Shown: positions 2,529-12,186, counted from the first letter of the stretch. The stretch is 32,000 bases of DNA from Planctopirus limnophila DSM 3776 (GCF_000092105.1 NC_014148.1:750001-782000), one strand, 5' to 3'. Notes: generated by a model from the letters alone, not told the origin. A program made the numbers and translations.

Positions 2529-2966
2529 TTCCTCAAACCCGCATCCACGATGAAGCGCTATGGGTGGCGTTGGCGACACAGGCCAAACAAACACTTCCGT
2601 GCTTATCCGTTCGTATGGTTCAGTTCTCTTCCTCAGGAGCCGTGAGGACTCGCCGCCAATCGGCTTCCCACCCCCGAACCCCAGCGATAAAAAGTTCAAT
2701 TGGCGTCCTGTCCTCTCCGCTTTCTCGGCCCACACGGCCGAAAACGCAGATCAGTGGAGCATGAGAGCAGTTGATCAGTTGACAAGGAGTATTGCTCCAC
2801 TGCAGTTCACTGATCCTCTCCTGTTCTGGACGTTCTTTCTTTCTGTTCAAAGCCTTCGCGACTCAATTCCCCAAGAGATGGTCTTCATTCAGAGTGCTGG
2901 AGTGACCCTCTGCTGAGTGGTCCTCTCGGTTGAGTGATCTTCCCATTTGAGTAATCGTCTCAGTCG

Positions 2967-3284
2967 CCGCAGCCTTGGCCCCGGTTGAAATTCTGATTTC
3001 GACCGGAATGGTGGAGCAACAGCTGGTATGCTTTCCGGGCAACTCCAATTCTGACTCAGACTGGTAAGGGAGCAACAGGATCGCTCTCCGCGAGTTCCAA
3101 AATGCGATTGTCAAAATTGCGGCTTAGCGTAGTGTCAAAAAGTGCAATGCGGTGTGGAGGTTCGTTCGATGATCCGTCGCAACTCCTTGGATTGTCGAAC
3201 TCATCAAAATTGAAGAGTTCAATCCCCACCGACCAAGTAAGTTAATTCTCTGCAGCCGTTCGGCGGTCGAACAATTGCTATGTT
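2967..3284 (+). repeat. Composite intergenic repeat, copy 1 (full length)
   Basis: Shares three blocks with copy 2 (6167-6472). (a) A 35-nt core at 2983-3017 that matches 28/35 to copy 3. (b) The block GCGATTGTCAAAATTGCGGCTTAGCGT at 3104-3130, 23/27 identical to 6299-6325. (c) The 3' block GCAGCCGTTCGGCGGTCGAACA...ATGTT. All alignments were done by eye. Confidence 0.7.
3102..3135 (+). promoter_or_regulatory. Promoter-like block inside repeat copy 1
   Basis: Two readings fit: ATGCGA-N17-TAGCGT (3102-3130), or TTGTCA-N16-TAGTGT (3108-3135). The same architecture is conserved in copy 2. It lies about 180 nt upstream of the ATG at 3312. Confidence 0.3.
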
Positions 3285-3311
3285 GCCAAGCCGCGAGAAA
3301 CAGAGTTCCCG

Positions 3312-3731
3312 ATGCCACGCCTCGCCCAACTTGCTTTGATACTTACGCTGCTCACAATTGGCTCGTGCACTATGCAGAAAGAGATCCGGCCCGCGATCAT
3401 CTCCGACATTCGCCTCGATATCGAACGCTGTCCTGTTCACGACGAACCGCTGATCGAGGCCACAAACAGCGTCGATTTTGAACGCGGAAGTTACATGCCG
3501 TCATACTACAAAATCCGTCTCGCTTTATTTCCCTGTGCGTTCGACGATCCATACTCTGAGGGCGAAATGGCGATGGTCACCTATTGTTCAAAATGCAGGG
3601 CCGCGAAAAACATGTATTTGCTTGATTCACAACGCTCGAATCGAGAAGAAAAGTGGACTCAGGATCAGGATGTCGATGGATTGATAGAACGCCAGCGACA
3701 CGCATTGGATTTTCAAGACTCGAAGGAGTGA
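3312..3731 (+). CDS. Lipoprotein with CxxH...CxxC pattern, unknown function
   Basis: 139-aa ORF. N-terminus MPRLAQLALILTLLTIGSC gives a signal peptide plus lipobox I-G-S|C. It has CPVH and a later YCSKC, a possible zinc-ribbon-like pair. Confidence 0.6.
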   Translation: MPRLAQLALILTLLTIGSCTMQKEIRPAIISDIRLDIERCPVHDEPLIEATNSVDFERGSYMPSYYKIRLALFPCAFDDPYSEGEMAMVTYCSKCRAAKNMYLLDSQRSNREEKWTQDQDVDGLIERQRHALDFQDSKE

Positions 3732-3841
3732 ATCGTCTCCTAAGTCGAGTCTGCAAGATCGCTTTCGGCATCAGAAATGTGAGCTGAAGAGAAACCATGA
3801 ATTCACGAGCCCTGAGCCTGTCAGCTGCATGAAAAAGGGAA

Positions 3842-4267
3842 ATGCGAATGTCCGATAGATCTATTGCCGACGCTCCATCGACGACATTTTTTCAGAATCC
3901 CACTCGCGTTATTGCCTGCGTTTTACTTGCGGTGATTGGAATCGGGATGTCGGCATGGGCGTATCAGCTGAGTCCTGGTGGCCCGATCCTTACCTGGGGG
4001 ATACTTCCTGGTGCGCCGTTTGTGATTCTGGCAGGCCTGTCGCTCGTAATGCGAATTCCACTTCGTGTGACGATCGGAGCATACGTCGGAGGCTTGTTCG
4101 CCGTTTCCATTCCGTATGGGGCGATCTGGTACTCGTCTCTGAATTACAATGGCGGTGGTGCTAATATCGGTCTTGGGCTGCTGCTGATTGCAACACTGGT
4201 TCTTCTGCCGATTCCAATGCTGATCGGTGGGTTCCTTGGCTGGGTGGTCGGTGCGACACACAAATAG
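3842..4267 (+). CDS. Small integral membrane protein (about 4 TM)
   Basis: 141-aa ORF, almost entirely hydrophobic and Gly-rich helices (VIACVLLAVIGIGMSAWAY, APFVILAGLSLVM, GAYVGGLFAVSIPYGAIWY, GLGLLLIATLVLLPIPMLIGGFLGWVVG). Confidence 0.6.
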   Translation: MRMSDRSIADAPSTTFFQNPTRVIACVLLAVIGIGMSAWAYQLSPGGPILTWGILPGAPFVILAGLSLVMRIPLRVTIGAYVGGLFAVSIPYGAIWYSSLNYNGGGANIGLGLLLIATLVLLPIPMLIGGFLGWVVGATHK

Positions 4268-4406
4268 TCGCTCTCGAGTGCGGCGAACAAGGCAGTTAAA
4301 CCGAACGGCGGATCGGGCGGATTCTGATATCAAAGGTTCTGGACGCTGCCGGGTATTCTTTGGTGTTATGGGGCTGGTGAGAGCCCGTTCCTCGTAAGGA
4401 GGATCT

Positions 4407-5531
4407 ATGAGAGTGTGCACACACGTCGGTATTGGGTTGGTTGTGGTGGCGGCTGTGTTGGGCGGGTCAGCAGCATCGATATCGGGTCAGGTACTGCGGT
4501 CTTCTGAAGAAGCAGCGGAGTTTCCGCACGCGTCACTGGCGTGCAAGCTGAAAATGGGCTCAATCACCGAGCGGGAAGTTGGTTCACCTTCCGGGACACT
4601 GTGTGACGCGACATGCAGCGTACTCGCGACTTTAAAGGGCCATCTGGGGAAGCAGGTGCAGATTACGTTCAGGCATCATGCGAATGGGCCACATAATCCA
4701 GGTATGGATACGGTCAAGGAAGGCGAAGTCTACGTTGTGATGTTGCGTGGTAAGACTTCGCCCTACGAGATGTTCGCAGTGATTAAGGCGGTAGACGCGG
4801 TCGTCGAACCGACATTTGGAACCAGGCCAGGGGAACGGTTGTTAGCAGAGTTGGTGGCGATGTGGAAGTCGAATGATCCGAAAATGCGCATCGCGGCAAT
4901 CGAGCAAATGGGAATAATTCGGGACAGGCGGGTGAGCGAAGAAGTGATCGCGGCGGCAAAGGATAAGGATGCGGAAACCGCGCGCGCTGGAGTCATCGCG
5001 CTATATCGCATGAAAATCGCCCCGGATGCGAAGCGGGTAATGGAGTTGTTCAACGAGCAGATTATGGAGGTCTGGTATCAGGAATCCGGCGAGCCACAGG
5101 AGGACGACAAGGGAGAGAAGATCTGGCGTCGCGATGCGGGTCACACTTTCCTGGAGCGCGGGTTGCCGGACTTTGACTACGCGACATACGTGCGGGAGGG
5201 AATCAAAAAGGAGTGGGTACGCAAGGATGATCAAACGCTGTACATGTTCTTCGGTGTCCCGTGGAAGGTGCAGCGGAAGGAGTGCGTTCCGGAATTGGTG
5301 AAACTTCTGGATGATCCGGACAAGAGGGTGCGGTGGTGGGCGGTACTTTGTCTGACGCATACAGTCGACGATGTGGATCGTCCGCAGTGGGAAGAGTACG
5401 AGCCACGGGAAGGCGAAGAATTGGCAAAGTGGCGGAAGTGGTGGAAGGAAAAAGGGGATGACTTTATGGCTGACACCGCCACTCAGCGGAGCAAACCTGA
5501 CATATTCCTTCGGCATGGTCATTCCCCATAA
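4407..5531 (+). CDS. Secreted HEAT-repeat protein
   Basis: 374-aa ORF with a strong SD (AAGGAGG) 6 nt upstream. N-terminal signal-like helix GIGLVVVAAVLGGSAAS. HEAT/PBS-lyase-like repeats: DPKMRIAAIEQMGIIRDRR, DKDAETARAGVIALYRM, DPDKRVRWWAVLCLTHT. Confidence 0.7.
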   Translation: MRVCTHVGIGLVVVAAVLGGSAASISGQVLRSSEEAAEFPHASLACKLKMGSITEREVGSPSGTLCDATCSVLATLKGHLGKQVQITFRHHANGPHNPGMDTVKEGEVYVVMLRGKTSPYEMFAVIKAVDAVVEPTFGTRPGERLLAELVAMWKSNDPKMRIAAIEQMGIIRDRRVSEEVIAAAKDKDAETARAGVIALYRMKIAPDAKRVMELFNEQIMEVWYQESGEPQEDDKGEKIWRRDAGHTFLERGLPDFDYATYVREGIKKEWVRKDDQTLYMFFGVPWKVQRKECVPELVKLLDDPDKRVRWWAVLCLTHTVDDVDRPQWEEYEPREGEELAKWRKWWKEKGDDFMADTATQRSKPDIFLRHGHSP

Positions 5532-5569
5532 CATAGCCTTGGAGCAGAATCGCGATAGCGATCGGTGAT

Positions 5570-6139
5570 ATGATGAGATTGTTGGCTGCGAACTTCTCAA
5601 GTTTTCGTTCAGCGGAGGAGGGTAGACACATTACTTATCCGATGGACTTGCGAGAGTTGTTCGAGGCCCGAGACGGCCGGCCGACCGAAGATCAGGCGGC
5701 TCGAAAGATCGCTACCTTCGCCGTCATCCCGGCGGCAATCGTTGGTCTGCTTGCCAGCACCCGACTGGTCGGTCTAGCCGATCCCATCGGACGACTTCTG
5801 TGGGTCTGCACGGCGGCCGCGTTGGCATCCGGGTTATGCATCGCGTTTCTGGTGTTGGGTATCTACTACCTGTTTGGATTCCGTCCGGTTGCCGTACTCG
5901 CAGACGCCCTGGTGGGTGTTTTCTATAGCTTATTGTGCGCTGCCACTTTAACCTTGCTGCTCATGTCGCTGAAGGTTGTCCCTCCTGGTTATGCGTTGTC
6001 CCCCTTGCTCCTGATCCCGTGCGCTGCCGTCGCAGTTCCACTCTTCCGGGCAAGGAGGGGAACGAAGCGCGACCGCAAAGCCGTCAGGGAGGCCGCAGAG
6101 TCCCACACCGCCGAACCAAGGGGTAAACCGGATTCATAG
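5570..6139 (+). CDS. Integral membrane protein (about 4 TM), unknown function
   Basis: 189-aa ORF starting 38 nt after the HEAT gene. It has a cytoplasmic N-terminus, four hydrophobic helices and a basic C-terminal tail (RARRGTKRDRK). Confidence 0.6.
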   Translation: MMRLLAANFSSFRSAEEGRHITYPMDLRELFEARDGRPTEDQAARKIATFAVIPAAIVGLLASTRLVGLADPIGRLLWVCTAAALASGLCIAFLVLGIYYLFGFRPVAVLADALVGVFYSLLCAATLTLLLMSLKVVPPGYALSPLLLIPCAAVAVPLFRARRGTKRDRKAVREAAESHTAEPRGKPDS

Positions 6140-6166
6140 CTGATGCGGGTTTTAAAACCTGGTTTT

Positions 6167-6472
6167 AGCCAGTAATCCAGGTTGAAGATCTGATTTCTAT
6201 CGGGGTGGTGAAGCAGAAAGAGGTTTGGTTTCCTCTTCGTGGCAATTCTGATTCAGGCGGGTTGGCGAGGAACGGTGTAGCTCACTGAGTTTCCGATTGC
6301 GATTATCAAAAGTGCGGCATAGCATATATGTCTAGAGCGGTGTAGCAAGGGAATCCGGTCAGCGCTCCGTTGTAACTTGTTTCGCGGTGTGACAAATCAA
6401 TTTCGACAAATTCATACTACACCGCCGAAGTACGGCAAAATTCTACCGCACTTCGGCGGTCGAATACATGTT
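6167..6472 (+). repeat. Composite intergenic repeat, copy 2 (full length)
   Basis: The 35-nt core at 6180-6214 is identical to copy 3 (7681-7715) at 33/35 positions. GCAATTCTGATTCAGG lies at 6242-6257. The promoter-like block is at 6297-6330. The hairpin at 6421-6460 has an 11-bp perfect stem ACCGCCGAAGT/ACTTCGGCGGT plus 3 more bp after one mismatch. The element ends at the conserved ATGTT (6468-6472). Confidence 0.75.
6297..6330 (+). promoter_or_regulatory. Promoter-like block inside repeat copy 2
   Basis: Two readings fit: TTGCGA-N17-TAGCAT (6297-6325), or TTATCA-N16-TATATG (6303-6330). It is positionally homologous to 3102-3135. Confidence 0.3.
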
Positions 6473-6956
6473 ATGCGAACATATCATGAAGACCACAGAA
6501 GTTCGACTTGAGGATCTCAGCAACGTCCGCTGTCGGTACTTCATGGCGGAGATTCCTGGACTTGAGCACCTACCAACGCTCATTGTCGAGTTCAGCGGGG
6601 AATGTGGCTTTGGTTCGGGCAGCAACGCTGATGCCTGCTACATGAACGGAATGATTGCCGCCGGATTTAAGGCGTGGGATCCCTCATGCTTCATTCTTGA
6701 TTTGCGACGCCTGAAATACGAATGGGGCGACATGATGACCGCGATCTTCGCGCCGCCGCATGAGCTCATTTCAATGAACGATGAAGAAGTTGAGTTTCCC
6801 TTTGCCGCTATCGTTTCCGACCTAAACCGAGACGGACTCACCAGCCTCGTAAAAGAGGAGATGCGGGGCAACCCCGAAGCTCTCTTGTTCGAGACATTTG
6901 ACGATGCTCAAGAGCGAGTGACTGCAATCGCAAAACAAACATATCACATCGCATAA
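6468..6956 (+). CDS. Small acidic cytoplasmic protein, unknown function (immunity-protein-like by context)
   Basis: 162-aa ORF with no signal peptide or TM segment. An alternative start is ATG 6486 (MKTTEV...). The ATG at 6468 belongs to the conserved end of the repeat. Confidence 0.6.
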   Translation: MLCEHIMKTTEVRLEDLSNVRCRYFMAEIPGLEHLPTLIVEFSGECGFGSGSNADACYMNGMIAAGFKAWDPSCFILDLRRLKYEWGDMMTAIFAPPHELISMNDEEVEFPFAAIVSDLNRDGLTSLVKEEMRGNPEALLFETFDDAQERVTAIAKQTYHIA

Positions 6957-6961
6957 CAATC

Positions 6962-7046
6962 GGTTCAACCGCAGCCGCAGGCCGCGCGGTTTCTGAAATC
7001 AATGTCATTCGCCGCGGCCGGGTGAACGCTGTCGTTCGGCAGTAGT
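6962..7046 (+). repeat. Short degenerate relative of the intergenic repeat (copy 4)
   Basis: CCGCAGCC..GGCC..CGGTT..TCTGA (6969-6996) resembles the left end of copy 1 (2967-2996). GCTGTCGTTCGGCAGT (7028-7043) matches 13/16 to GCAGCCGTTCGGCGGT of copy 1. It contains a GC-rich stem GGCCGCG/CGCGGCC. The GGTTGAA core is present only inverted (GGTTCAACC, 6962-6970). Confidence 0.3.
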
Positions 7047-7065
7047 ATCGGATACCAATCGCCAG

Positions 7066-7632
7066 ATGATTTTCGGGAATCCAGAAGACTTCGCGATCGA
7101 GGCAATGACGGAACCGCATTTGATAGCTCCGTCGGCCGTGTGGAGCCGAATGTGTCTGCATATTGATGATGTTACGCTAGGGGATTTCTCGGACGAACAT
7201 TGTGGACTGTACGGCGCTTACTGTGGGTTCAAAGAACTGCTCAACACGAGCGCTCGACTATGGGACGAATCATTTGATGGGCTATCTCTCGAGCAGATCC
7301 ACGATCTCGTTCGCAATGCAATTTATGGGGACGATGACAGGACCATGTCGGCGATCCTCGAAGACTCGCAGCGATACCGTCGTTTTGATTTCCTCACAAA
7401 TTGGGGTGAGCAATTCGACGGATTTGCATCTGTGATAATCCAAGAAGATGAAGAAACAACGACGATTCTGCATCGACCGCATTCCGCATTTGCACGTCAA
7501 CGAGAGCCGGGGCCATTTGTTGTCGCGACTTGCAGTACTATTAGATTTCAGAATGCCTGTGCCTCGCTGGTTCAATGGTTTGACCAAGAAACTGAAAGGC
7601 TCGCACTGATTGAAGGCAGAACCAAGCCGTGA
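7066..7632 (+). CDS. Small cytoplasmic protein, possibly Imm42-like immunity protein
   Basis: 188-aa ORF. The N-terminus MIFGNPEDFAIEA resembles, from memory, the N-terminal signature of Imm42-family immunity proteins (MI.G[DN]P..FAIE). This has not been verified with an HMM. No signal peptide or TM segment. Confidence 0.6.
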   Translation: MIFGNPEDFAIEAMTEPHLIAPSAVWSRMCLHIDDVTLGDFSDEHCGLYGAYCGFKELLNTSARLWDESFDGLSLEQIHDLVRNAIYGDDDRTMSAILEDSQRYRRFDFLTNWGEQFDGFASVIIQEDEETTTILHRPHSAFARQREPGPFVVATCSTIRFQNACASLVQWFDQETERLALIEGRTKP

Positions 7633-7633
7633 A

Positions 7634-7658
7634 CCGGAGCACGCGATCCGGCGTTTTT
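7634..7658 (+). terminator. Weak intrinsic terminator after the 7066-7632 gene
   Basis: Stem CCGGA/TCCGG (7634-7638 with 7647-7651), an 8-nt loop, then CGTTTTT. It starts 2 nt after the stop codon. Confidence 0.4.
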
Positions 7659-7674
7659 GAAGTGGACGCAGGGT

Positions 7675-7760
7675 GGCCCCGGTTGAAGATCTGATTTCTA
7701 CCAGGGTGGTGAAGCCACAAGGGATATTCTTCCTGCCCTGCCGCAATTGTGAATCAGGAA
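7675..7760 (+). repeat. Intergenic repeat, copy 3 (5' module only)
   Basis: GGCCCCGGTTGAAGATCTGATTTCTACCAGGGTGGTGAAGC followed by GCAATTGTGAATCAGG (7743-7758). The GGCCCCGG lead-in is shared with copy 1. I could not align the promoter-like and 3' hairpin blocks downstream. Confidence 0.7.
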
Positions 7761-7905
7761 TGTTTTCATGCGAGCAACGGGCAGGGCGTGCTGGTTGTTA
7801 CGAAAGCCTGCTCTCCCTCTGGCACGTAAGTCACTCGCTGGCGAACGATCTTTGCCGCCTTAGGAAATACGAGACCTGGCTCGAACGCTTTTCAGCGAGA
7901 TCTCC

Positions 7906-10900
7906 TTACTTTTTGGTGGCGAGCCAGTCGTCAACGACGACTTCCAGTTCTGCCAGTGGGATGGCTCCATTCTTGAGAATGACATCGTGGAATTCGCGTA
8001 GGTCGAGTTTTTCGCCCAGTTGAGCCTTGGCCTTCTTGCGAAGTTCCTTGATCTTCAATTCGCCAATCTTGTAAGCCAGAGCCTGACCGGGCCACGAAAT
8101 ATAACGATCCACCTCGTTCACTATATCGAGTTCCGTCTTGGCCGAGTTATCTCGGAAAAACTGGATGGCCTGTTCCCGAGTCCAGCCTTTCGAGTGAATG
8201 CCGGTATCGACCACCAGACGGATCGCACGCCACATCTCATACGTGAGTTGCCCGAATTTGGCATAAGGGTCGTCATAGACACCTAATTCTTCGCCGAGGC
8301 TTTCACTATAGAGTGCCCAGCCTTCGACGAAAGCCGTAAATCCAGCGAAGCGGCGGAAGTTGGGGACGCCTTCGAGTTCGGTTGATAACGCAATCTGCAG
8401 GTGATGCCCGGGAACGGATTCATGGAGCGACAACGCGGGAATCTCGTACTTGGGTCGCATTTGGGGCTGATAGAGATTCACAAAGAACATTCCGGCACGA
8501 GAGCCATCGGCCGATGGTGGGTAGTAATAGGCCGCTGTGGTATCTGGCGCCATATTGGCGGGGATCGCCTTCACGCCATAAGGAATTCGCGGCAACGTCT
8601 TAAAGAGTTTCGTGAGTTGCGGGTCTACCCGTTTACAAAAGGCTTCGTATTCAGTGAGAAGTTCTTTTTCATTCTGGAAGTAGAACCTGGGATCAGTGCG
8701 TAAGGATTCGAAGAAGGCCTTCAGATCGCCCTGAAATTGAACCTGCTCGCGGATCTTTTCCATTTCGGCACGAATGCGCGCGACTTCATTCAGGCCTATC
8801 TGATGAACTTCATTAGGGGTCATATCGAGAGTCGTAAATTCACGGACTCGAAACTTGTAGACTTCGTCGCCGCCAGGAAGATTCGAAACGCCAGCTCCTG
8901 CATAGCACGCCGGTAGATACTTGTTCGTAAAGAAATCGAGGAACTTCTGATAGGCAGGGACAATCTTGGTACGAATCGCTTCCTGAGCGGCCTGCTGGAG
9001 CTCATCCCGCTGCGGAGCGAGATCTTGAGGAATGCTGGTAAAGGGCTTATAGAACAGGCTTTGTGTCGGATCTTTGACAATTTGTCGCTCAATCTGCTTG
9101 ACGACCCGCTGCATGGTGATCTTCGGTTGCAGGCGGCCTGCGCGAATCCCTTCTTCCATCAAGGCAATTGTCTGATCCATATAGACAGGAAAACTGTTGA
9201 TGCGCGCAATCCAGTTCTGATAGCTGGCAAGATCGCCAAACTGAATCGAGTCAGTGATGGAGTTTTCATCCTGGATTCCTTCCCGCTGAGTGAGAGGGAC
9301 GAGGTACCATTTGGTTTTCGTTTCTTCGATGTTCATCGCGAGTTGGCGGGCATAGAGCCTGGCGTTGAACTGAGCTTTGGCCGAGAGTGGCTTCCCGCGA
9401 ATCTGTTCCAGCTTTTCGGCAGAGATCTTCATCTGCTCGTGACGCTGCTTGATGGCAGGAAGCGAGATGTCTGGCCAGAGGGCATCGTAGCGGGTATCGC
9501 CTAGATATGAGGCAAATGTGGGCGAGTTCTTGAGTGTCTGTTCCCACTCCTGATCGAAGAAGGCTTCAAGCTCGGCATCGGCGACAGTTTTCGAGCAGAC
9601 CGGCAATTCTTGTGACGTTGATCCACCGGAAGGTCCTGCACCTTGTGTGTATTTCAGCAGAAAGGCGAGTTCGATCGCGAGATCTTCGATGGTCTTACTG
9701 ACAGGCCGGGCACCGGTGTGTCCCAGCGCATCATCGTACATCAGGAAGATCGGTCGCTTGAGCGCGGGGACGGCTTGCAGCCGGGCAACCATCTTGCGGG
9801 CATGGTTGGGATCAACTCGCGTATCCGCATCTCCGGTAATGAACATGGCCGCCGGGTAGTTCACGTTCGGGTCGATGTGGTGATAGGGCGAATACGACTT
9901 GAGAATGGGATACATTTCGGGATCTTCGCTGCTGCCGTACTCGGGGACCCAGAAACGAGCCACGAGGAACTGGTGATAACGGAGCATATCGAGCAGCGGG
10001 TAGGAACAGACGACCGCTGCAAAGAGCTCGGGTCGCTGGGTCATGGCGGTGCCCACGAGGAGACCACCGTTACTGCCACCATTAATGGCCAGATGGGCGG
10101 GCGATGTGTACTTGTTGGCAATCAGGTATTCGGCAGCCGCATAAAAATCATCAAAGACGTTCTGCTTCTTTTTGAGATAGCCGGCCGTGTGCCAGTCTTC
10201 GCCAAACTCGCCGCCACCCCTCAGGTTGGCGACGGCATACACACCACCCAGTTCCATCCAGAGGGCGGCTTTGGTGGAGAAGCCGGGGGTGAGATTGACC
10301 GCGAAACCTCCATAGCCATAGAGCAAAGTGGGGTTCGTGCCATTGAGTTCGAGGCCTTTGCGATGAGCGATAAACATGGGGATGCGCGTTCCGTCTTTGG
10401 AGGGGAACCACACCTGCCGGACAGTGAACTTTTCGCTATCGAAGGGGATCTCGGATTGATGCCAGACAGTCGTTTTCTGTGTGGGAATATCGAACTGATA
10501 GATTGTCCCCGGAACAATATAGCTGCTGAAACTATAGTAGAGTTCGGATTGATCCCACGCCCCTGAGGCGCCTGAGATCGATCCCAACGTCGGAGGATCG
10601 ATTGAGAAAAGTTCTTTCCCGGTGAGATCGTAGGCTTTGAGTTCTGAGACCACGTTTCGCAACCAGCGGATAAAAAGCTTCCCCCCAACGAGTGAGATCC
10701 CTTCGAGTGATGCCTCAGACTGAGGGACAATGACGGGGCATTGATCAAGGACCGGTTGACGAAGATCTGCGAGAAGCAGCTGGCCTCGGGGTGCTTTCCA
10801 GGTGGTCCGGACAATCGCACGATGATCAATGGCATCGACTTCAAACTCGGCCTCAAGACCGACAGCGAAGGGAAGGATCGGCTCGTTGGGCTTGGCGAGC

Positions 10901-11757
10901 GACTGAATGTAGACATCATTCTGCGAGGAGGCCCCGAGATAAACATGATAAATGAGCCATTGGTCATCTTCTGAGAGACGCACACCGAGAATCTTCTCCG
11001 GGCCGAACTTCTCGCCAAACAGGAGTGTTTCCTTTCCAGTAGCGAGGTCGCGAACGTACGCGCGGGGGCCGATCTTCTGATCGTGACGCGAAAGATAGAC
11101 CTTCTGGCCATCGCGTGAGAACGACAGGCTGGAATAGCGACCTTTCGGGAACTCGGTCTTTGCAAACGATTTGGTGGTGACATTGAACAGGCGAGGGGTG
11201 ACTTCGTCCTCGCCACCAGTGCGAACACCACAGATGAGCAGGTTGCCATCGTGAGTGACGTCCATCAGATTGACAGTCGTTTTTCCATCCGACGAGAGCT
11301 TCTGCGGATCAATCAGGAGTTCATCGGGAGCATTCACCGATGGCCTGTACCAGATGCTGGGGACATCGGCAGAGGCGGTGCGTTTCGAGAAGAAAGCGCG
11401 ACCTCCACGAACGACCGGCATGCCGACACTGTCCACTTTGAGAAGCTCGGCTAACCGGGCCTTGAGTTCAGGAATTTGCGGCCAGCTACTGGCAGAACTT
11501 GTGATGTACTGAGCCTGCTCGCTGAGCCATTCCCGAGTGGCGGGAGCTTTTTGATCTTCGAGCCAGCGGTAGGGATCGACGATCGTTTCGCCATGAAAGA
11601 CTTCGGGAACGTTATCCGTTTTTGCCACGGGTGGTTTCAACAAGATCTCTTCAGCAGCAGCAATCGACATGAATTGCATTCCCGAAAGACAGAGCATTGC
11701 CAGAGAAAGAAATGCGAGGATATGGCATTTTGTATCTCGTCGAGAGGCTGTCGGCAT
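7906..11757 (-). CDS. Secreted prolyl oligopeptidase (S9A) fused to a DUF885-type putative metallopeptidase domain
   Basis: 1283-aa ORF with a signal peptide. The N-terminal half has the POP hallmarks DPYRWLED, GGSNGGLL (nucleophile Ser), GDADTRV and GHTG. A Gly/Ser linker (GAGPSGGSTS, about 9610-9645) follows. The C-terminal half has the DUF885-typical LHESVPGHHLQ and NSPTFASYLGD. Confidence 0.9.
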   Translation of the reverse strand: MPTASRRDTKCHILAFLSLAMLCLSGMQFMSIAAAEEILLKPPVAKTDNVPEVFHGETIVDPYRWLEDQKAPATREWLSEQAQYITSSASSWPQIPELKARLAELLKVDSVGMPVVRGGRAFFSKRTASADVPSIWYRPSVNAPDELLIDPQKLSSDGKTTVNLMDVTHDGNLLICGVRTGGEDEVTPRLFNVTTKSFAKTEFPKGRYSSLSFSRDGQKVYLSRHDQKIGPRAYVRDLATGKETLLFGEKFGPEKILGVRLSEDDQWLIYHVYLGASSQNDVYIQSLAKPNEPILPFAVGLEAEFEVDAIDHRAIVRTTWKAPRGQLLLADLRQPVLDQCPVIVPQSEASLEGISLVGGKLFIRWLRNVVSELKAYDLTGKELFSIDPPTLGSISGASGAWDQSELYYSFSSYIVPGTIYQFDIPTQKTTVWHQSEIPFDSEKFTVRQVWFPSKDGTRIPMFIAHRKGLELNGTNPTLLYGYGGFAVNLTPGFSTKAALWMELGGVYAVANLRGGGEFGEDWHTAGYLKKKQNVFDDFYAAAEYLIANKYTSPAHLAINGGSNGGLLVGTAMTQRPELFAAVVCSYPLLDMLRYHQFLVARFWVPEYGSSEDPEMYPILKSYSPYHHIDPNVNYPAAMFITGDADTRVDPNHARKMVARLQAVPALKRPIFLMYDDALGHTGARPVSKTIEDLAIELAFLLKYTQGAGPSGGSTSQELPVCSKTVADAELEAFFDQEWEQTLKNSPTFASYLGDTRYDALWPDISLPAIKQRHEQMKISAEKLEQIRGKPLSAKAQFNARLYARQLAMNIEETKTKWYLVPLTQREGIQDENSITDSIQFGDLASYQNWIARINSFPVYMDQTIALMEEGIRAGRLQPKITMQRVVKQIERQIVKDPTQSLFYKPFTSIPQDLAPQRDELQQAAQEAIRTKIVPAYQKFLDFFTNKYLPACYAGAGVSNLPGGDEVYKFRVREFTTLDMTPNEVHQIGLNEVARIRAEMEKIREQVQFQGDLKAFFESLRTDPRFYFQNEKELLTEYEAFCKRVDPQLTKLFKTLPRIPYGVKAIPANMAPDTTAAYYYPPSADGSRAGMFFVNLYQPQMRPKYEIPALSLHESVPGHHLQIALSTELEGVPNFRRFAGFTAFVEGWALYSESLGEELGVYDDPYAKFGQLTYEMWRAIRLVVDTGIHSKGWTREQAIQFFRDNSAKTELDIVNEVDRYISWPGQALAYKIGELKIKELRKKAKAQLGEKLDLREFHDVILKNGAIPLAELEVVVDDWLATKK

Positions 11758-12186
11758 AACGTGATTCCTGAGTTTGCGGGAGACCGATGCAGAGCGTCTG
11801 ATGAACGCTGAACTCTCCGCATCAGGATCGTTGTGAGGAACAAAAAGAGTAACCGCTTAAGTCAAATTCTGCCTGAAAATTATCGGTTGTTTTGGCTTCC
11901 TGAGAAGTGATCTTCTTAAGGAAGCCGTAATGCATGACGAGTATTTGGTACAAGGAAATGACGTTTTCCACAGTGCAAGATCATGACAGAATAGCGTTGC
12001 TCTGCAAAGTGAACCGGGCGGATGAGAGATGATTTTGCGACGGTTGATGCTGAAGGGGCAGCAAGTCAGAAAGTGATGTGGAGGGGCTCGCGCGAAGCCG
12101 CGAAGATCTCGAAGGGAAGGCCAAGGTGATTGAGTGAGGCAACGAGATCCGATAGATCGATCTCAGAAAGTGAATGAACCAACTTC

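Follow-up and report, generated by a model that had tools for sequence, protein, structure and literature searches.

The repeat-bearing locus

In Planctopirus limnophila DSM 3776, a tRNA-Ser gene and a peptidase gene enclose a variable region in which six small co-directional genes are punctuated by copies of an intergenic repeat. The region lies in a stretch of 32,000 nt (GCF_000092105.1, NC_014148.1:750001-782000), hereafter referred to as the window, and positions are counted from its first nucleotide. As judged from sequence comparison, the repeat is an undescribed family of palindromic non-coding elements, which appears to be confined to Planctopirus-like planctomycetes. The features of the locus, including its open reading frames (ORFs), are:

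2967-3290, + strand: repeat copy 1, 'long variant' (5' module 2971-3027, nhmmer E=3e-16)
6165-6480, + strand: repeat copy 2, 'long variant' (5' module 6169-6224, nhmmer E=1e-14)
7668-7863, + strand: repeat copy 3, complete canonical element (5' module 7668-7724, E=6e-19; 3' module 7796-7861, E=6.5e-14)
4288-4362, + strand: second short repeat, member 1, directly after the ORF end at 4267
6962-7036, + strand: second short repeat, member 2, directly after the ORF end at 6956
1522-1609, + strand: tRNA-Ser(CGA), conserved left anchor of the variable region, in synteny with locus L006 (see below)
3312-7632, + strand: the six co-directional small genes punctuated by repeats
3312-3731, + strand: lipoprotein-like gene
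3842-4267, + strand: membrane-protein gene
4407-5531, + strand: HEAT repeat gene
5570-6139, + strand: membrane-protein gene
6468-6956, + strand: gene for a protein with a STAS-like fold
7066-7632, + strand: gene with a sub-threshold Imm42 match (18.2 bits, cut-off 27.2 bits)
7906-11757, - strand: S9 peptidase-DUF885 fusion gene, conserved right anchor of the variable region

The three repeat copies form the top direct-repeat family of the window, with 84-nt cores at 2976-3059, 6173-6256 and 7674-7757, all on the + strand. A 22-nt core, GGTTGAAGATCTGATTTCTACC, has only these three sites in the window at up to three mismatches, again all on the + strand, while 0.00 sites were expected from 100 shuffles, and a second motif, GCAATTCTGATTCAGG, is present again in all three copies. 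The copies are clustered, with three of them within 4.9 kb and none in the remaining 24 kb. An initial annotation, made from the sequence alone, had described a composite intergenic repeat family whose copies follow + strand ORF ends (6139, 6956 and 7632), and both the modular composition and this placement are genuine. Its identity counts between copies (33/35, 28/35 and 23/27), read off the sequence, hold as well, and copies 1 and 2 can be aligned over ~320 nt, up to the next gene. Since the proteins encoded downstream of these two copies are unrelated to each other, what the copies have in common is a non-coding repeat rather than a piece of a duplicated gene.

Other details required revision. 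Copy 3 had been given as 86 nt; it is actually a complete element of 196 nt, which aligns over its full length with 10 other elements, comprises a variable middle between its modules and possesses a 3' module that is missing from copies 1 and 2. It lies between the ORF at 7066-7632 and the convergent peptidase gene. The extended 5' part of copy 1 reaches ~3060, with a second TTCTGA motif at 3048-3053, and its tail of 230 nt ends ~20 nt ahead of the start codon at 3312. The direct repeat that had been proposed between the left and right ends of this copy scores at chance level (12 vs. 11.9 for shuffled sequence). The tail of copy 2 holds a strong hairpin (6421-6460, -23.8 kcal/mol, z=-6.0), and the ortholog of this copy in locus L011 is 94% identical. 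What had been taken for a short degenerate copy at 6962-7046 aligns to the 5' module consensus with a score of 13, compared to a shuffled mean of 13.1, and has no nhmmer match. In contrast, the local alignment between 6962-7036 and 4288-4362 scores 32 (14.9 +/- 2.3 in shuffles, reached by 0/500), and thus 6962-7036 represents a second, shorter repeat. This repeat measures ~62 nt and consists of a GC-rich stem with TTCTGAWATCAA in its loop; apart from orthologs, the loci fetched for comparison hold no more copies of it. TTCTGA was also followed through the hairpin loops of the arrays in general, and this candidate was dropped, as there was no enrichment outside the 5' modules and the pair of short repeats.

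Range and anatomy of the repeat family

Species-representative genomes and the JGI metagenomes were each scanned once with a pattern, which led to 11 loci (L001-L011): six contigs of Planctomyces sp. D1_MAG_00040, one of Planctomyces sp. DS3.3.33, one of Planctopirus hydrillae JC280 and three metagenome contigs from two assemblies. Copies beyond the window, for which the initial annotation had proposed to search, are thus found on 11 contigs, which represent 4-5 genomes and metagenomes of Planctopirus/Planctomyces. By profile searches of all fetched DNA from these 11 independent loci, at least 22 independent 5' modules and 14 3' modules were detected. Blastn of the canonical element against PLSDB plasmids and INPHARED phages gave no match, and neither did a pattern scan of IMG/VR. 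At gathering score, Rfam reported only tRNA in the window and in L001-L008, and nothing relevant in 2900-7950 at E<=10. The searchable literature on the core sequence, on planctomycete repeats or on MITEs (miniature inverted-repeat transposable elements) holds no description of the family, and a search for further copies via spurious ORFs (concatenated peptide, three open frames of the 5' module) delivered no candidate.

The canonical unit has 193-196 nt; across copies, canonical elements comprise 182-196 nt, mostly 189-196 nt, and the long variants ~320 nt. The canonical element begins with a 5' module of 57 nt, GCAGGGTGGCCCCGGTTGAAATTCTGATTTCTACCGGGGTGGTGAAGCCACAGGAGG, in which a GGTTGAA..TCTGATTTC core lies inside an imperfect hairpin. 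Across 19 copies, 17 of 62 columns of this module are invariant, including GGTTG.A, TCTGA and TTC. The module holds a 12-6-12 inverted repeat (CCCCGGTTGAAA TTCTGA TTTCTACCGGGG), and its core, GGTWGAAAT-N4-ATTTCWACC, is palindromic at 16 of 22 positions. A middle part of ~70-80 nt follows, which cannot be aligned between subfamilies (45-57% identity) and often has its own hairpin, and the element is completed by a 3' hairpin module of ~50 nt that ends with ...GGCACACAGGTAGCTCGCGGACGAGCAACCTGTGCCACCCTGC. In type 1, to which the elements described so far belong, the termini are complementary over 10 nt (GCAGGGTGGC/GCCACCCTGC).

The boundaries of the copies are sharp. Elements L001a, L001b and L010 form a subfamily with 89-92% identity over the full 193-196 nt (85-90% for the middle part), while identity between their 60-nt flanks is at random level (46-58%). 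Identity is 77% within the subfamily L005a/L005b and 66-74% within the subfamily of L006a, L007 and window copy 3. The long variant is represented by window copies 1 and 2, L011:1161 and L006:4770; it keeps the first ~90-120 nt, and the rest is another common tail of ~200-230 nt. Besides copies 1 and 2 themselves, their tail was seen only in their orthologs and in L006:4770-4916.

A type 2 element occurs in L011. It has the same scaffold, AGGGTGGCC-hairpin-GGTGG-N-GCCACAAGA, with a wholly different hairpin (CAGACGTGGCTTTGCACGTCTG), measures ~380 nt (3806-4183 and ~4826-5243) and is bounded by near-perfect terminal inverted repeats of ~35 nt, with one mismatch if counted by eye. Elements are nested in this locus: a type 2 copy sits within the 3' hairpin of a type 1 element, and L011:2855-3298 is a type 1 element that carries an insertion of ~250 nt. 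Finally, L009:11701-11919 is bordered by an exact 25-nt duplication, GCTTGAGAGCAGCTTTCATGAAATC, which retains one gene's stop codon and the start codon of the gene that follows. This element with ~85 nt of extra sequence (11676-11944) lies antisense in a spacer of ~10 nt between a squalene-hopene cyclase gene and the next gene; the 25-nt duplication is unusually long for a transposon.

Position of the copies relative to genes

In seven of eight tandem arrays (L001, L003, L004, L005, L006/window, L010 and L011) the copies are co-oriented with the genes, and L009 is the exception, with both copies antisense to their neighbours. Five copies lie between convergent genes and therefore give no information on orientation. 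The upstream stop codon precedes the element by 0-8 nt in ~6/13 cases, and at L006:4770 it is formed by the TGA within GGTTGAA; from the element to the next start codon, the distance is ~20-60 nt. There are at least three copies in L011, four in L005 and two each in L001, L003, L006 and L009. The genes of the arrays are mostly small and unannotated, with one to four co-directional small ORFs between modules. While 5' modules are repeated, the 3' module is single and terminal (5'/3' modules: 3/1 in the window, 3/1 in L011, 2/1 in L003). Solitary copies adjoin ordinary genes, namely those for an aminotransferase, a DUF1990 protein, squalene-hopene cyclase and 3-keto-disaccharide hydrolase, as well as lepA. 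An element-bearing array beside lepA encodes an NTF2-fold immunity protein (L001 2994-3434; Pfam Imm-NTF2, 39.8 bits, cut-off 25), a hint that some arrays hold orphan immunity genes of polymorphic toxin systems.

The proteins of the window island had no match in PADLOC or NCBIfam, and exact look-ups of window proteins returned same-strain context only. With a GC content of 0.50-0.56 the island equals its surroundings. The protein encoded at 6468-6956 (162 aa) belongs to no Pfam family and has ~20 homologues, mostly on very short metagenome contigs; its structural model (pLDDT 91) resembles a STAS / anti-sigma-factor-antagonist-like fold (4qtp_B, E=5.7e-5, TM 0.51/0.64). Its homologues in other taxa have no element beside them, and thus gene and repeat are not a travelling unit.

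Differences between related strains

The window and its relatives share anchors, while the genes between the repeat copies differ and the breakpoints lie at or within repeats; the initial annotation had proposed to compare strains for such repeat-bounded cassettes. On the left side, window 1-1610 matches L006 through the 3' end of tRNA-Ser, and window 2712-3053 matches L006:3822-4174. Past ~90 nt of copy 1, similarity to the orthologous element at L006:4091-4283 drops from 84% to ~40%. The order in L006 is a complete element, a gene for a membrane protein of 157 aa and a long-variant element, and from its sequence window copy 1 looks like a recombinant of these two L006 elements. The crossover lies ~60 nt 3' of the conserved hairpin core and is the sole breakpoint that can be placed precisely. 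On the right side, window 7674-12913 matches L007 at 91% identity, beginning with the 5' end of copy 3; upstream of copy 3, there is no similarity to L007 at the DNA or protein level. A third match (94%) links window 5010-7039 to L011 and diverges just 3' of the short repeat; beyond this break at 7039, L011 continues with two different small ORFs, and a 5' module lies behind each of them. L001 and L010 have the lepA anchor in common and differ in the content of their arrays. No cassette gene is common to different arrays. Consequently, variable arrays with repeats at their junctions occupy the region from tRNA-Ser to the peptidase and at least one further locus.

Some observations concern the anchors themselves. 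The S9 (prolyl-oligopeptidase)-DUF885 fusion protein (1283 aa) has just two close clusters (97% and 85% identity), after which identity falls to 55%. Orthologs of this anchor added little, as uvrB, and no element, comes after the gene in the metagenome-assembled genome (MAG) DS3.3.33. Directly 3' of tRNA-Ser(CGA), a 1.1-kb segment (1611-2711) is missing from the syntenic MAG locus L006. At its borders (1601-1610 and 2712-2721), 10 nt of the tRNA 3' end, CCTCTCCGCT, are present as a direct repeat, and its 203-aa ORF (1917-2528) has no Pfam, NCBIfam or PADLOC match. The segment resembles a leftover of an element that had inserted at the tRNA gene.

Secondary structure

If folded in silico, the elements behave unevenly. 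L001:1094-1286 forms a rod (-87.8 kcal/mol, z=-5.6), while z ranges from -5.3 to +0.5 for the set of elements: several fold strongly (-4 to -5.3) and about half fold no better than shuffles (-1.9 to +0.5). The own hairpins of window copies 2 and 3 likewise fold no better than shuffles. Between the RNAs of the two strands, that of the + strand is more stable for only 7 out of 12 elements. Pairing reaches 90% in the 5' hairpin, with compensatory change in only 3 of 16 pairs; in the 3' hairpin 4 of 10 pairs show compensatory changes. Mismatches of the outer stem, counted by eye, are balanced between G.U (4) and C.A (5), and neither hairpin is followed by a U-tract. Since compensatory pairs are few, G.U and C.A are balanced, strand asymmetry is lacking and the window hairpins are unremarkable, selection looks as if it acts at the DNA rather than the RNA level.

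Origin and function of the repeats

We favour the interpretation, to which we give about an even chance, that the repeats are a lineage-specific, non-coding and non-autonomous mobile element of the kind of MITEs, bacterial interspersed mosaic elements (BIMEs) or enterobacterial repetitive intergenic consensus (ERIC) sequences, which secondarily serves as a substrate of homologous recombination in accessory arrays. This is suggested by the sharp boundaries in unrelated flanks, the conserved ends with a free interior, the complementary termini, the nested insertions and the L009 insertion; by analogy, conserved ends with a free interior are the pattern of non-autonomous transposons. In such a scenario, the 57-nt left-end module would be recognised by a putative mobilising protein, which would explain why it is nearly invariant. 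Copies would insert in short spacers after genes and would build up where small accessory genes form dispensable arrays. In these, homologous recombination might use the 60-120 nt that copies have in common, and genes between copies could be deleted, inserted or swapped, which would place repeats at the junctions of strain differences. Window copies 1 and 2 would then represent a derived subfamily, the right half of which was replaced by the other common sequence of ~230 nt. Observed are the family with its anatomy and range, the sharp boundaries, the nesting and the overlap of copies with synteny breaks, while we infer mobility, the role in recombination and the trans-acting protein from the comparison of sequences.

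However, several observations weigh against this proposal. A flanking direct repeat of at least 8 nt is absent from 20 of 21 elements, the exception being the 25-nt duplication in L009, and the left flanks (AACG, TTCC, GGCC, GATC, ATGA, TTCG, GGAC and others) reveal no target consensus. Neither an autonomous partner nor a transposase was seen in ~250 kb of fetched loci. Seven copies were found in one MAG with a strict search pattern, which is low for repetitive extragenic palindromic (REP)-type repeats. The co-orientation in 7/8 tandem arrays is unlike symmetric MITEs, and this orientation bias hints toward a strand-specific mechanism or an RNA-level constraint. Furthermore, the orthologous pair of window copy 3 and the L007 element is 74% identical, compared to 91% for the adjacent gene, and thus the elements evolve fast or are replaced.

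The favoured and the rival readings are not fully exclusive. A cis-acting RNA, for instance, would be compatible with a mobile origin: the element would be transcribed with the upstream gene and fold as a structure of the 3' untranslated region (3'-UTR) or between cistrons, acting in termination, mRNA 3' protection or processing. Such 3' or intercistronic RNA roles have been shown for REP, ERIC and Correia repeats. The orientation along with the genes in 7/8 arrays, the start 0-8 nt past the stop codon in ~6/13 cases (once with the TGA of GGTTGAA as stop), the five copies between convergent genes, the strong folds (z -4 to -5.3), the compensatory changes in 4/10 pairs of the 3' hairpin and the type 2 element, which replaces the whole 5' hairpin while the scaffold is kept, all point in this direction. 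We nevertheless consider it unlikely, as Rfam gave no match even at E<=10, there is only weak covariation in the 5' hairpin, about half of the elements are at shuffle level (z -1.9 to +0.5), folding of the - strand is as good as that of the + strand, U-tracts are absent after both hairpins and both L009 copies are antisense to their neighbours. A role as regulatory DNA, which we regard as less probable again, would turn the palindromic core into the operator of a dimeric regulator and the tail of the long variant into promoter and leader of the next gene. Consistent with this, 16/22 core positions are palindromic, sequence instead of structure is conserved and conservation of the copy 1 and copy 2 tails reaches the start codons of unrelated genes. 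These tails contain -35/-10-like hexamers, read off the sequence (TTGTCA-16-TAGTGT in copy 1, TTATCA-16-TATATG in copy 2), but a consensus promoter scan missed them and its count was not above shuffles. Moreover, 4-5 complete elements have no co-directional downstream gene, and the core is 215-330 nt away from the next start codon. Sigma-54 and extracytoplasmic function (ECF) promoter readings of the TGGCCCCGGTTGAA start were rejected for their spacing and for the lack of TGGC in copy 2.

The initial annotation had compared the layout to integron or rAID-like cassette arrays on the one hand and to REP/BIME-type elements on the other. In a cassette system, the 12-6-12 inverted repeat of the 5' module would be the core site of a putative unlinked site-specific recombinase that integrates and excises circular gene-plus-site cassettes, a reading we rate as improbable. 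It is with similar reserve that we mention what would follow: the 5' module might be the recombination site of an undescribed planctomycete gene-capture system, with an unlinked recombinase or a strand-specific HUH-type enzyme acting at or near the GGTTGAA..TCTGA hairpin. Equally doubtful, such a system might string single-gene cassettes, including immunity-type ones, in front of a resident complete element. A gene-capture system would explain the multiple 5' modules with one terminal 3' module (3/1, 3/1 and 2/1 as above), the strict polarity and the anchor-bound strain differences. The 1-4 co-directional small ORFs between modules, the varying array content among close relatives at the two anchors tRNA-Ser/peptidase and lepA, the arms and TCTGA centre that are nearly invariant as in a protein-binding site, and the immunity-type genes (Imm-NTF2 in L001 above cut-off, Imm42 in the window sub-threshold) would fit as well. 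Yet the linked tyrosine recombinase, which the initial annotation had proposed to look for, was not found: neither this nor any other recombinase or transposase domain is encoded in the window island, in 6.7 kb upstream or by the ~45 ORFs of the related loci L001-L011. In addition, the resolvable breakpoint lies ~60 nt off the core and another one at a different, short repeat, the GTT/AAC boxes have the reverse polarity of those in attC and no attC reaches the length of the element. GC content does not deviate, different arrays have no cassette gene in common, homologues of a cassette gene occur elsewhere without the element, and many copies are solitary, beside housekeeping genes. Because no recombinase was found in these loci, the breakpoint is off the core, GC is normal and copies occur alone, the REP/BIME/MITE half of that comparison is the better fit and the integron/rAID half the poorer one. 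A purely local duplication or chance resemblance without wider meaning, finally, has next to no probability in our view. The tail of copies 1 and 2, seen otherwise only in orthologs and L006:4770-4916, would agree with it, while zero chance matches are expected and copies are present on 11 unrelated contigs from several genomes, which refutes it along with the possibility of a local duplication lacking further copies.

Relevance of the family

Among planctomycetes, P. limnophila serves as the main genetic model, and neither Rfam nor the searchable literature describes an interspersed repeat family for it. The repeat marks hypervariable accessory-gene arrays of the genus, which are natural sites for strain typing or neutral insertion. 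Short-read assemblies of the same strain (L012-L014, L025) start or stop in or beside copies 1 and 2 (~3187, 6438-6877), and hence the repeats break assemblies. A defined repeat explains why short-read assemblies of the lineage break at these loci, and such repeat-broken assemblies may hide arrays of this kind in MAGs. If the cassette reading were true, it would point toward a novel route of gene cassette assembly that lies outside the integron paradigm. At present, the repeat is a well-delimited but ordinary object, probably a palindromic mobile repeat specific to its lineage, and in general it offers little surprise unless the cassette reading holds.

Comparison with known systems

Among the systems that resemble the array as a whole, rAID-1 designates polyimmunity clusters of Bacteroidales that are defined by a 5' XerD-like recombinase and low GC (Ross et al., bioRxiv 10.1101/471110). 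The likeness consists of co-directional arrays of small genes, some of them possibly immunity-like, with repetitive intergenic sequences in between. However, the window array possesses neither a 5' XerD-like recombinase nor low GC, belongs to another phylum and carries unrelated repeats. Where rAID-1 has its XerD-like tyrosine recombinase, the head of the array consists of tRNA-Ser and the 1.1-kb insert with the 203-aa ORF.

With attC sites and clusters of attC sites lacking integron-integrases (CALIN) the family shares imperfect palindromes at the 3' end of small, promoterless-looking ORFs, co-directional arrays and strain-variable content. The initial annotation had noted a misfit to the attC consensus, and box polarity, length and the lack of an integrase bear this out. 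RYYYAAC...GTTRRRY boxes are missing: either strand reads 5'-GGTTG...CAACC-3' and thus has the polarity GTT...AAC, with AAC absent from the 30 nt at the 5' end and GTT from the 30 nt at the 3' end. The element measures 182-196 nt, or ~320 nt in the long variants, compared to 57-141 nt for attC, and no Phage_integrase (IntI) domain occurs in the island, the 6.7 kb upstream or the ORFs of the 11 loci. Unlike attC, with its typical structural conservation, the family is conserved much more strongly in sequence.

Palindrome-associated transposable elements (PATEs) derived from IS200/IS605 likewise have asymmetric ends with subterminal hairpins, no target duplication and a strand or orientation bias. 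They differ by a conserved target of 4-5 nt in the left flank, which the Planctopirus elements lack, and by ends that are not complementary, and no TnpA was found.

BIMEs and REP doublets forming hairpins (REPINs) are built from GTAG-tagged REPs, which come with their REP-associated tyrosine transposases (RAYTs; Di Nocera et al., 2013, PMC3733652). Like these, the Planctopirus elements are extragenic, modular or mosaic, clustered and without target duplication. They also consist of two inverted hairpin units with a variable linker, the whole of which may fold back in some copies, and in one subfamily both hairpin units read GGTAG-stem-loop-stem-CAACC. The termini pair, and some copies fold as rods (z -4 to -5.6) while others do not (z -1.9 to +0.5). 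In contrast to BIME/REPIN, the units measure 57 and ~50 nt instead of 20-40 nt and differ from each other, and copy number appears low. An assignment to GTAG-tagged REPs was rejected: GTAG occurs only in the 3' modules of L001a, L001b, L008 and L010, within the stem, and elsewhere GTCG, GTCA, CCAG, ATCG or others are found. No Y1 transposase was seen in the fetched loci, with scans of the collections using the DNA pattern only.

ERIC sequences, also called intergenic repeat units (IRU), and the Correia elements of Neisseria are bacterial MITEs or foldback repeats that are transcribed with neighbouring genes, and both have symmetric ends as well as duplications of a TA target. The Planctopirus elements differ in that 20/21 copies lack a duplication, in their asymmetric ends and in their orientation bias. 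As for MITEs in general, a fixed-length target-site duplication is absent from the same 20/21 copies, while terminal inverted repeats (10 nt in type 1, ~35 nt in type 2), size, non-coding nature and identical boundaries in unrelated flanks agree. Like ERIC and Correia elements, the family represents an imperfect palindrome of 100-200 nt with complementary termini and no coding capacity, which is located after genes or between the cistrons of operons, with sharp copy boundaries and subfamilies. By analogy, the element thus appears to work most like BIME/REPIN, ERIC or Correia-type palindromic repeats.

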